DNA of 32,000 nt from Candidatus Iainarchaeum sp. (GTDB lineage Archaea; Iainarchaeota; Iainarchaeia; Iainarchaeales; CSSED10-239). The stretch is taken from positions 12,225 to 44,224 of the forward strand of contig PWLL01000077.1 of the NCBI GenBank assembly GCA_003559395.1, read 5' to 3'. The notes beneath the pieces are model-generated. The model worked only from the letters and a program-made list of their open reading frames with translations, had not been told where the DNA came from and did no database searches. Each line of letters starts with the position of its first letter. The stretch's first letter is position 1. Below are positions 18,012-19,912 of this stretch, in pieces. Made by a program: the position numbers and the translations under genes.

Positions 18012-19912
18012 GTAATGCACAATTAGGTTATGGAAAGCGTAGATTAGTAGCAGAAATAATAAAAAAAACTTGGGATGTAGAAGACCCTTACCAAATAAAA
18101 CTTGGTTTAAACGACATTTATTATATTGTGCAAGAAATGAATGCTGAAGAAGGAAAAGCATATTTAGAAAACAGACCATTAAGTGCCAGAGGATTTAATG
18201 TTTTTAGATATTTTGCTCAACACTTACTTTATAGAAACTTGGCTAATTACGATAGTATGGTGTTGTTGACATCAGACAAAGGTTGTTTAACAGATGATGC
18301 AAAAATTATGCTTCCTAGAGATTTATTAAAATATCCAGATGGCGTTCCTATAAAAGACTTAATTGACAAAGGAGAAATTTATGTATATTCTTTTAATATT
18401 AATACTAAAAAATTAGAATTAAAAAAATCAGACGGTGTTGAATTTGTAAAAAATGACGATGTTTATGAAGTAGAATTAACTACAGGACAAAAAATAAACG
18501 CAACCTCTGAACACCCATTTTTATTAATGGATGGTTCATATAAACAATTAAAAGATTTGGTGTGGTTGGGTGGTCGGAAAGACACAGACAGATTACGAAT
18601 GATATTTCCAAAAGTATCAAAATATGGTGGCATAATAAAAAACATAAAACATTTGGGTAAGAAAAATGTTTATGATATCGTTAATGTTAGAGATAATCAC
18701 AATTTTATAGCTAACGGGTTCGTCGTCTCTAATTCAGGGAAAAGCTCCGCGGCAATACTTCTTGCTAGAGCTTGGTGTAATATAATAGGAATAAAATTTA
18801 ATCCTAGTAGACACATAGCTTATAGTAATAGAGATGTTATGAACAAAATAGAAATATTAAACAAATGGGAACCATTAATTGCCGACGAGTCAGTGAGGTT
18901 CTGTTGTGTTGAAGGCAATACTTTAATACAAACAAAAGAAGGAGAATTTAGAATTAAAGACCTTGTTGATAAAACAAATTTTGAAGTATTGTCATATGAC
19001 GAAAAAACAAAACAGTTTGAATATAAAAAAGCCGAAAAATGTATTAAAACAAAAACAGATTATGTATATGAATTAGAAACTTTTTGCGGTAAAAAAATAA
19101 GATGTACAAAAGAACACAAATTTTTAACAAATGATGGTTGGAAAAAATTAAAAGAACTAATAGATAATGACATATTAATTAATGATTTAAAAATAAAATC
19201 AATTACAAAACTAACAAAAACACAAACATATGATATAATTAATGTTAAAGACAATAATAATTATATTGCAAACGGTTTTATTGTGCATAATAGTACAATG
19301 GATTGGGCTAAGAAAGAATCTAAAGAGTTGAGAAAAAAACTTGCAGAAGTAAGAACAAAACATTTGTTGTTTATTTTATGTTTTCCATTAAAAGTTACAA
19401 AAGTAGAAAAAACTTATTTAGATAGTTTTGTTAATTATTGGATAGCTTTGTTTGGTAGAGGAGTTGGTTCAATATTTGTTAAAGACCAAAATCCTGCCAA
19501 CGACCCTTGGCGTATAAAAGAATTTAAAGATATTGGTTCATACACAGAGTTTACTTCTATTACAGACATTGAAAAAAAATTAAAAAAACACCCAAACTTT
19601 TGGCAAATAATAAAATTTCCTAAACCACCAGATTGGCTTTATCAAAAGTATTTAGAAATAAGAGAGAAAAACGTTTACAATGAAGATAGTGTTAGAGAAA
19701 GTGTGACAGTAGAAGATGTTCATAGAGCATTAATGGTTTTGGCTTTACAAGACATTATGATGAATGACGTAACTTTTAGTATGAACAGAATTGCCTTACA
19801 TATAAAAAACACTTATGATATTCCAATAACAAAAAAACACATTCAAGCAATACTTTATGATTCCAAACAATTAATTACTAAGATAAGAGAGGAAGAAATT
19901 GATGCTAAGTAG
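18008..19912 (+). CDS. P-loop NTPase (about 355-aa extein; possible packaging or replication ATPase) interrupted by two mini-inteins
   Basis: The spliced extein would read LLTSDKG|SGKSSAAILLARAW (Walker A restored) and WEPLIADESVRFC|STMDW (Walker B LIADE). Confidence 0.75.
   Translation: MSNAQLGYGKRRLVAEIIKKTWDVEDPYQIKLGLNDIYYIVQEMNAEEGKAYLENRPLSARGFNVFRYFAQHLLYRNLANYDSMVLLTSDKGCLTDDAKIMLPRDLLKYPDGVPIKDLIDKGEIYVYSFNINTKKLELKKSDGVEFVKNDDVYEVELTTGQKINATSEHPFLLMDGSYKQLKDLVWLGGRKDTDRLRMIFPKVSKYGGIIKNIKHLGKKNVYDIVNVRDNHNFIANGFVVSNSGKSSAAILLARAWCNIIGIKFNPSRHIAYSNRDVMNKIEILNKWEPLIADESVRFCCVEGNTLIQTKEGEFRIKDLVDKTNFEVLSYDEKTKQFEYKKAEKCIKTKTDYVYELETFCGKKIRCTKEHKFLTNDGWKKLKELIDNDILINDLKIKSITKLTKTQTYDIINVKDNNNYIANGFIVHNSTMDWAKKESKELRKKLAEVRTKHLLFILCFPLKVTKVEKTYLDSFVNYWIALFGRGVGSIFVKDQNPANDPWRIKEFKDIGSYTEFTSITDIEKKLKKHPNFWQIIKFPKPPDWLYQKYLEIREKNVYNEDSVRESVTVEDVHRALMVLALQDIMMNDVTFSMNRIALHIKNTYDIPITKKHIQAILYDSKQLITKIREEEIDAK
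18284..18733 (+). mobile_element. Mini-intein 1 (150 aa) inserted in the Walker A P-loop
   Basis: Block A CLTDDAKIML; block B ATSEHPFL; blocks F/G VYDIVNVRDNHNFIANGFVVSN followed by +1 Ser. No homing-endonuclease domain. Confidence 0.75.
18905..19291 (+). mobile_element. Mini-intein 2 (129 aa) inserted just after Walker B
   Basis: Block A CVEGNTLIQT; block B CTKEHKFL; blocks F/G TYDIINVKDNNNYIANGFIVHN followed by +1 Ser. The start could instead be the preceding Cys (18902). Confidence 0.75.

Follow-up and report, generated by a model that had tools for sequence, protein, structure and literature searches.

Introduction

Inteins have been found in the cores of several ATPases, often several together and at the P-loop or around the Walker B motif, as in DnaB (P-loop and H4 inteins), MCM (sites a-e), RFC-S and mycobacteriophage TerL (sites a-e) (PMC4760082, PMC5050341, PMC6195587). 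The presence of multiple inteins in one ATPase core, insertion into the P-loop, a penultimate residue other than histidine and loss of the homing endonuclease are already well documented (PMC4760082, PMC5050341), and ectopic movement of inteins between P-loops has been discussed for ATPases in general (PMC4760082). Here, we analyze a 32,000-nucleotide stretch of DNA, referred to as the window, from an assembly assigned to Candidatus Iainarchaeum sp. (GCA_003559395.1, contig PWLL01000077.1, positions 12,225 to 44,224 of the forward strand), in which a single open reading frame (ORF) encodes a P-loop ATPase predicted to be interrupted by two mini-inteins, one inside Walker A and one just past Walker B. 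Compared with the multi-intein ATPases described to date, the host protein is an uncharacterized viral ATPase, the parental intein endonuclease is of the HNH type, and the P-loop insertion site, G/[ST]GK[ST] (with the slash marking the junction here and below), is displaced upstream by three residues relative to the "classic" GK/[ST] site of TerL1-a (PMC5050341).

The mini-inteins of Ssp DnaB (1mi8) and of Npu and Ssp DnaE (2keq, 4kl5) resemble the two inserts in their HINT profile, Cys1, TxxH motif, blocks F and G, terminal Asn and lack of an endonuclease. They differ from the inserts in their host proteins and insertion sites and in having Cys rather than Ser at the +1 position; identity to the inserts is about 35-45% over the aligned stretches, and the first of our inserts keeps a linker of ~25 residues derived from an HNH endonuclease.

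A P-loop ATPase gene interrupted by two predicted mini-inteins

The precursor ORF (window positions 18008..19912, + strand) encodes a protein of 634 amino acids (74.0 kDa), and a protein identical to it is carried by Logan contig SRR490128_339849. The N-extein (18008..18283, +; residues 1-92) aligns to residues 1-92 of intein-free homologues and ends in LLTSDKG, the first half of Walker A. It is followed by intein 1 at the P-loop site, which we call site a (18284..18733, +; residues 93-242, 150 amino acids, from CLTDDAKI to GFVVSN), and by a middle extein (18734..18904, +; residues 243-299) that opens with SGKSS, the second half of Walker A, runs through the Walker B stretch PLIADESVRFC, and holds the invariant G-K-S and D-E columns. 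Intein 2 occupies a site five residues past the Walker B DE, termed b2 (18905..19291, +; residues 300-428, 129 amino acids, from CVEGNTLI to GFIVHN), and the C-extein (19292..19912, +; residues 429-634 and the stop codon) begins with STMDW and contributes the remaining ATPase core and a C-terminal helical domain. Excision of both inserts in silico yields a 355-amino acid protein (41.6 kDa) that reads ...LLTSDKG-SGKSSAA... at the P-loop and ...PLIADESVRFC-STMDW... at the Walker B region. The computed masses are 58.8 and 56.8 kDa for the two single-intein species and 17.2 and 15.2 kDa for the inteins.

Both inserts were recognized by intein profiles, with scores far beyond those expected by chance. 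Pfam PF14890 (Intein_splicing, cut-off 35.8 bits) matched intein 1 with 50.9 bits (E 1.9e-13) and intein 2 with 71.6 bits (E 8e-20). Of the TIGRFAM models for the N- and C-terminal splicing regions of inteins, TIGR01445 (cut-off 24.5) gave 36.8 and 45.9 bits, respectively, and TIGR01443 gave 15.6 bits for intein 1, which is exactly its cut-off of 15.6, and 19.3 bits for intein 2. In phmmer searches against PDB, the top match of both inserts was the Ssp DnaB mini-intein 1mi8 (E 3.4e-9 for intein 1, 4.6e-16 for intein 2), with further matches to the Npu DnaE, Spl DnaX, gp41-1 and NrdJ-1 inteins. The catalytic residues are C93, block B T166-S-E-H169 (TSEH), block F DNHNF, the C-terminal VSN with N242, and the +1 S243 for intein 1, and C300, block B T367-K-E-H370 (TKEH), block F DNNNY, the C-terminal VHN with N428, and the +1 S429 for intein 2, in which the -1 residue is Cys where the consensus is Ala. 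Same-site inteins of other genomes (73-77% identity overall) show no variation at C1, at the T and H of block B, at the D of block F, at the C-terminal N or at the +1 S/T. No homing-endonuclease domain was matched in either insert by the Pfam and NCBIfam/TIGRFAM profiles, at lengths of 150 and 129 amino acids.

A search with the spliced extein found 339 homologues. Among the best 120 of these, PF14890 was present in 17 and no intein domain was found in 103, most of which are ~352 amino acids long (350-360). The intein-free homologues align over 98-100% of the spliced 355-residue sequence with 55-67% identity, and in this alignment (A1) the window inserts appear as pure gaps whose edges fall exactly at KG/[ST]GKS and RF[A/C]/S. 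In an alignment of 47 intein-free sequences, G94-K95-S96 and D143-E144 are invariant, with a mean column identity of 61%. Since intein-free alleles have gaps at the exact junctions, the possibility that the two segments are conserved, non-splicing domains of the ATPase is excluded. The initial annotation had described two mini-inteins in one P-loop ATPase, both lacking an endonuclease domain, whose removal (residues 93-242 and 300-428) would restore the P-loop as well as the Walker B region of an extein of about 355 residues; its coordinates and residue numbers proved exact, and the profile scores and the end-to-end alignment of the extein to intein-free homologues bear out this description. 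On these sequence comparisons, we consider it very nearly certain that two class-1-type mini-inteins, one inside Walker A and the other just past Walker B, are real domains of this protein.

The penultimate histidine, a usual though not an essential feature of class 1 inteins (PMC5050341), is present in intein 2 and replaced by serine in intein 1, a substitution that the initial annotation had thought capable of altering the splicing chemistry of intein 1. The fast-splicing Npu and Ssp DnaE inteins also have a penultimate serine, ending in ASN. Among 23 complete site-a inteins, 20 end in SN, the others having K, A or H at the penultimate position, and the histidine of block F is still present in intein 1 (DNHNF). 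Phage class 1 inteins often lose the penultimate His (to Gly, Lys or Ser) yet splice efficiently, with the block F His compensating (PMC5050341). Because 20 of the 23 site-a inteins share the serine and the phage-intein literature describes it, the penultimate Ser of intein 1 is a lineage trait and a known variant, without novelty. A complementary pattern was also apparent between the two sites, with site-a inteins combining block F NHNF with a penultimate Ser and b2 inteins combining block F NNN[YF] with a penultimate His; the b2 intein of homologue P0127 has neither histidine, its penultimate residue being Gln.

By analogy with canonical intein chemistry, from which the following steps are taken, splicing is predicted to follow the class 1 pathway with Ser as the +1 nucleophile. 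Each HINT domain would fold post-translationally and undergo an N-S acyl shift at Cys1 (C93 and C300), the N-extein would be passed by trans-esterification to the +1 Ser (S243 and S429), the terminal Asn (N242 and N428) would cyclize, and an O-N shift would finish the ligation. The two splicing events would restore the Walker A loop (TSDKG-SGKSS) and the segment after Walker B (ADESVRFC-STMDW), such that ATP binding and hydrolysis would be possible solely for the doubly spliced protein; we infer, on sound grounds, that the ATPase relies on both events. Taken as a whole, a P-loop nucleoside triphosphatase (NTPase) precursor that carries two independent mini-inteins and is restored by splicing is a highly probable explanation of this gene. 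At the b2 splice junction of the window, the -1 Cys and Cys1 form a Cys-Cys pair that might be redox-sensitive.

Insertion sites and endonuclease loss across the ATPase family

An exhaustive profile search of 1.84 billion representatives identified 1,272 relatives, many of which have two to four separated matching stretches. Inteins of the family occupy four recurrent sites, namely site a at the P-loop (KG/[ST]GKS; 23 complete examples), site b1 directly before Walker B (EPLI/CDEA, with +1 Cys; 10 examples), site b2 five residues past the DE (RFA/S; complete in the window, P0125, P0127 and P0144 and begun in the incomplete P0150 and P0164), and site c (NYW/CDLF; 5 examples). In addition, the P0091 intein lies at FAS/SEDW, one residue downstream of the usual RFA/SS of b2, and P0130 has inteins at LL/CEGIKGAGKS, just before the P-loop, and at NF/CLSEEW, one residue upstream of b2. 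These adjacent but distinct sites suggest repeated independent insertion or intein "sliding". Overall, at least six insertion points fall within ~110 residues of a 350-residue protein: just upstream of the P-loop, in the P-loop, before Walker B, at three neighboring positions past Walker B, and past NYW.

Up to three inteins are present at once in one protein of the family, namely in P0126 (789 amino acids; a, b1 and c; Pfam 141 bits over three stretches). P0137 combines b1 with c, the incomplete P0164 has a, b1 and the start of a b2 intein, and P0125 (624 amino acids) has the a plus b2 arrangement of the window. Given these varied combinations, and P0125 in particular, the window allele is one of many and not unique. 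At the sites that it does not use, the window protein reads ADES, with Ala in place of the +1 Cys of the CDEA found in b1 hosts, and IALF in place of the CDLF of c hosts. It therefore lacks a splicing nucleophile at b1 and c, and a functional intein could not sit there.

Site-a inteins come in lengths of 303-307, 254, 188-190 and 137-153 amino acids, and the long forms contain an HNH_3 domain, for which P0105 has a precomputed PF13392 match and P0124 scores just below the Pfam cut-off (E 1.3e-4). In alignment A4, intein 1 matches both flanks of the HNH insert (DLVWL.., TDRLRM.. and ..YGGIIKNI) without the ~150 residues between them, retaining ~25 residues of the HNH-endonuclease linker (LVWLGGRKD..TDRLRMIFPK..VSKYGG), and the examples at site a form a deletion series of 303 > 190 > 153 > 150 amino acids. 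Judged by this alignment, intein 1 is an internal-deletion derivative of the 303-residue HNH-endonuclease intein of the P-loop. The window inteins are thus at a late stage of the homing cycle, and, with the endonuclease gone, they are not expected to home unaided. Both descend from site-specific lineages circulating in uncultivated low-GC (guanine plus cytosine) viruses of ~50-180 kb. A foreign origin of intein 2 was considered on account of its low GC content at third codon positions (10% versus 22% for the extein, Fisher p = 0.003) and rejected, as the other genes of the window span 11.7-20.5%, close to this value. With intein 2 as the sole query, a word-indexed search gave a single weak match and was uninformative on its nearest relatives.

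A related intein was found in a different protein. In the related genome L002, an XPB/Rad25-like superfamily 2 (SF2) helicase gene (L002 positions 5980-8292), one gene upstream of the ATPase, carries a 327-residue intein inside its Walker A motif (CTG/...HN/SGKT). This intein is 33% identical to the 303-residue site-a intein of P0124 over its full length, including the HNH region (E 7e-37), and its HNH-type motif region aligns with that of P0124. Compared with site-a inteins, it averages 43% core identity, and it falls beside the site-a group in a neighbor-joining tree. The orthologous SF2 helicase of the window (1919-3187, - strand; 54% identity) is intein-free, with the empty site STG-AGKT; because Ala stands at the would-be +1 position, splicing there could not be supported. 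In another related genome, L009, the helicase was called as two ORFs (245 and 326 amino acids), both with intein matches and with a 275-residue ORF between them. The similarity between the ATPase and helicase inteins suggests that one intein lineage moved ectopically between the P-loops of different proteins.

The extein and its relatives

The extein has no family in Pfam or NCBIfam. Its family is joined by hhalign (E 3.6e-70) to distant relatives of 300-340 amino acids, of which 47 of 50 match phrog_5484, "DnaA-like replication initiation protein" (best E 4.9e-15), and some of the relatives have C-terminal helix-turn-helix (HTH) domains in Pfam. Profile searches of the extein family (A2) and of the distant relatives (A3) against PDB sequences gave matches at the P-loop level only (VapE-like, E 0.15; UvrA, E 8e-4). 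An AlphaFold2 model built from the 47 intein-free sequences (mean predicted local distance difference test score, pLDDT, 85) has an N-terminal helical region and a P-loop core in which Walker A comes after strand 83-88 and Walker B falls on strand 139-142; residues 263-354 form a C-terminal helical domain. When this model was compared with a library of viral structures, the best match was ORF286 of Acidianus two-tailed virus (ATV; E 3.3e-7, template modeling (TM) scores 0.42/0.51), which may be the DnaA-like ATPase of this virus, and the next matches were picorna-like virus polyproteins, Zot-like proteins and other P-loop proteins.

The closest described systems for the extein are the "DnaA-like" AAA+ ATPases of archaeal viruses (arCOG07960, phrog_5484), which are conserved in Fuselloviridae, Guttaviridae and Bicaudaviridae according to the profile of the International Committee on Taxonomy of Viruses (ICTV). 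The extein shares with them a Walker A/B ATPase followed by a helical, HTH-like C-terminus, and this combination of Walker A, Walker B and C-terminal helical or HTH domain, by which such ATPases can be recognized, is found in the family. It differs from them in that structural similarity is limited to TM ~0.4-0.5 without a full-length match, and the viruses that carry it have genomes of ~50-180 kb with very low GC and no other recognized hallmark of fuselloviruses or bicaudaviruses.

Profile matches of the unspliced protein form an annotation trap, as it is intein residues that produce the NCBIfam matches "replicative DNA helicase" and "RtcB" and the PHROG matches "DNA helicase", "terminase large subunit" and "recombinase". 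They are consequently unfit for naming the gene.

Alternative explanations

One or both inserts could instead be degenerate, non-splicing HINT domains that are kept in the mature protein, or modules used only for cleavage or regulation. Their lack of a homing endonuclease, the mark of a late stage of the homing cycle, would fit such decay, as would the non-canonical residues, and some of the same features weigh against the splicing reading: splicing is predicted from sequence, intein 1 has no penultimate His, and intein 2 combines the unusual -1 Cys with a block F that has no His, on account of which the rates or conditions of splicing could be atypical. However, the catalytic positions are all intact and are conserved among same-site inteins elsewhere, the penultimate Ser is the norm at site a and phage inteins with a non-His penultimate residue splice well (PMC5050341), and 150 unspliced residues between G and SGKS would destroy nucleotide binding in a strongly conserved protein, which makes non-splicing domains the least probable of the alternatives. 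Only slightly less improbable is a recent duplication within the gene. The initial annotation had called the C-terminal blocks of the two inteins nearly identical and proposed that one intein had spread within the gene to a second site. Homology between the two is clear (BLASTP 42% identity, E 2e-27; global or core alignments give 43-45%), over the C-terminal 33-37 residues they are 61% identical to each other versus 34-40% to Ssp DnaB, and the inteins of the family cluster together relative to a single outgroup, Npu DnaE. Nevertheless, their last 25 residues agree at 16 positions (64% amino acid and 69% nucleotide identity), with different codons at half of the shared residues, and this block is roughly 45-90% identical across all inteins of the ATPase family. 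Inteins at the same sites of other genomes are much closer, intein 1 having 60-78% core identity to the closest site-a inteins and intein 2 having 50-60% identity to other b2 inteins; in the neighbor-joining tree (140 core columns), inteins group by insertion site, with a, b2 and c in separate clades. Furthermore, in its N-terminal half intein 2 resembles Ssp DnaB (43%, score 153) as closely as it does intein 1 (47%, score 149), and the closest relatives of the extein (P0001-P0003 and P0005; 71-73% identity) have the site-a intein and lack the b2 intein. We conclude from these comparisons that inteins 1 and 2 represent separate site-specific lineages, independently acquired or inherited, with an ancient common origin or movement between sites within one viral intein pool being possible.

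The role of the spliced protein is less clear-cut. We infer that it is the product of a highly conserved gene of the virus group, that it has distant kin in the "DnaA-like" ATPases of spindle-shaped and two-tailed archaeal viruses, and that it most likely is an ATPase that binds DNA and acts in replication of the genome or in some other transaction on DNA. The gene follows an XPB-like helicase gene, directly in L009 and L010 and at a distance of one gene in L002. The narrower assignment, that the extein is a DNA-associated DnaA-like P-loop ATPase probably acting in replication, may as readily prove wrong as right, and several observations count against it: the window extein itself matches phrog_5484 with an E value of only 0.0016 (residues 70-278), Foldseek matches to PDB are generic ASCE/AAA+/RecA folds (DnaA, PilB, RecA/RadA, RFC, STIV2 B204) with E of at least 2.7e-3 and whole-protein TM of at most 0.3, the "DnaA-like" label given to the archaeal virus family is a predicted function, and the position of the gene just upstream of very large, probably structural genes would be compatible with a morphogenetic role. 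The last observation also favors a packaging or morphogenesis ATPase, with virion assembly gated by two splicing events, as do weak structural similarities to the packaging NTPase B204 of STIV2 (TMt 0.47), to a Zot-like protein and to an A32-like ATPase and the fact that no terminase was recognized in the 32-kb window. Nonetheless, Pfam, NCBIfam and PHROGs show no signature of a terminase, of FtsK-HerA or of a portal-associated protein in the extein, which also has no nuclease domain, the match of the precursor to phrog_17415 ("terminase large subunit") lies inside intein 2 (residues 300-410) and so stems from the intein, the relatives match the DnaA-like PHROG and carry HTH domains, and, as the window is part of a genome of ~50-180 kb, a terminase may be located elsewhere. 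A packaging role is therefore rather unlikely. The initial annotation had regarded the protein as the only ATPase candidate for packaging or morphogenesis and made virion production dependent on two splicing events. The window contains two further ATPase-type genes, however, those of a second Walker A/B protein (ORF 8666-10840; Walker A GDMSSGKS, Walker B VIDE, weak AAA_14/DUF5906 matches) and of the SF2 helicase at 1919-3187, and of the proposed dependence the part that concerns the ATPase holds up while the link to virion production is conjectural.

The carrier genome and the remainder of the window

The window has a GC content of 28.6% and no tRNA genes, and the majority of its genes belong to no family. 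Among 185,579 species-representative genomes, the ATPase family was found in one, on a 13-kb contig binned with a metagenome-assembled genome of Thermotogaceae; Thermotogaceae were considered as hosts and rejected, a single binned contig of 13 kb being too weak. The family is also present in IMG/VR, where the contigs measure 53-125 kb, and on metagenomic contigs reaching 183 kb. A tBLASTn search of 50,697 GenBank phage records with the extein and its distant relative P0165 gave no match, and searches of the neighboring large ORFs against PHROGs, Pfam and PDB returned nothing for virus typing and no terminase. Taken together, these results suggest that the carrier belongs to a group of large, lytic viruses of low GC content that has yet to be described.

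Immediately upstream of the ATPase gene, a 58-residue ORF (17835..18011, +) overlaps its start (ATGA). The initial annotation had it as a ribbon-helix-helix (RHH) gene; its similarity to RHH proteins is weak (Pfam Antitox_RHH, E 0.0057, below the cut-off), and the ORF is not conserved here in related genomes, with other neighbors in L002, L009 and L010. Downstream, a 147-residue ORF (19899..20342, +) overlaps the stop of the ATPase; ORFs of 135-137 residues also lie directly 3' of the ATPase in L002, L009 and L010, matched to the 147-residue ORF by size alone. Beyond the ORFs of 135-147 residues follows a block of proteins of 1,140-3,005 residues. In the window, this region (23617-30700, +) comprises ORFs of 464, 1,140 and 636 amino acids without Pfam or PHROG matches, of which the 464- and 636-residue products look rich in charged residues and Gln. 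Related loci have ORFs of 1,184-1,709 and 104-107 amino acids at matching positions, ahead of a 3,005-residue protein in L009 with Gly_rich_2 and Laminin_G_3 domains. The large ORFs at 23617-30700 are probably a structural module of an undescribed virus type.

Between the ATPase and this block lies an IscB-type RNA-guided nuclease module (20614-22107, +), consisting of a HEARO/omega-RNA (20614-20848; Rfam RF02033, 126 bits, E 4e-26) directly followed by an ORF with RRXRR and HNH domains, whose real start is probably the ATG at 20893 (MQKKPMMPC). No RRXRR/HNH ORF was found downstream of the ATPase among the ORFs listed for L002, L009 and L010, and the module looks like an insertion specific to the window genome, ~700 nucleotides downstream of the ATPase.

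Other parts of the window contain a possible replication module (8666-13698, +) without a database family or a PDB sequence match for either of its proteins, of which the 724-residue protein, the second Walker A/B protein mentioned above, has a Cys-rich stretch, a possible zinc finger, and the 536-residue protein carries the motif IFIDIDRK, which recalls archaeo-eukaryotic primases. Consecutive ORFs of 735 and 201 amino acids (14998-17807, +) have HExxH metalloprotease-like motifs (LGHEFQH and WHEYGHE), and the 735-residue ORF matches phrog_4301, a PHROG without an assigned function (E 7e-10). A leftward block on the opposite strand (1061-4655, -) holds a family 2 glycosyltransferase (GT2), the SF2 helicase and two tandem N6/N4 DNA methyltransferases (3184-3933 and 3939-4655), and the GC skew switches near 7-8 kb.

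Discussion

Against the background of the inteins already described in ATPase cores, the added value of this locus is the hot-spot character of an unannotated viral ATPase family and the P-loop-to-P-loop link with the helicase intein. More tentatively, and with somewhat less than an even chance of being right, the ATPase family of this undescribed virus group may be an exceptionally dense intein "nursery", with its at least six insertion points, all stages of homing and an HNH lineage jumping between the P-loops of the ATPase and the XPB-like helicase; the window allele, whose two endonuclease-free inteins are of different lineages, could then in addition serve a replication ATPase as a post-translational timer with two steps.

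The family provides a compact natural data set on intein gain, endonuclease loss and movement between the P-loops of different proteins, and the two compact mini-inteins with Ser at +1 (129 and 150 amino acids), together with their site-specific relatives, are a possible source of orthogonal splicing tools. The host is a conserved ATPase of the viral "dark matter" that is readily misannotated through intein-derived matches to terminase, DnaB helicase and recombinase. For the biology of these viruses, the locus would mean that an important, highly conserved ATPase is predicted to become active only after two protein-splicing events.

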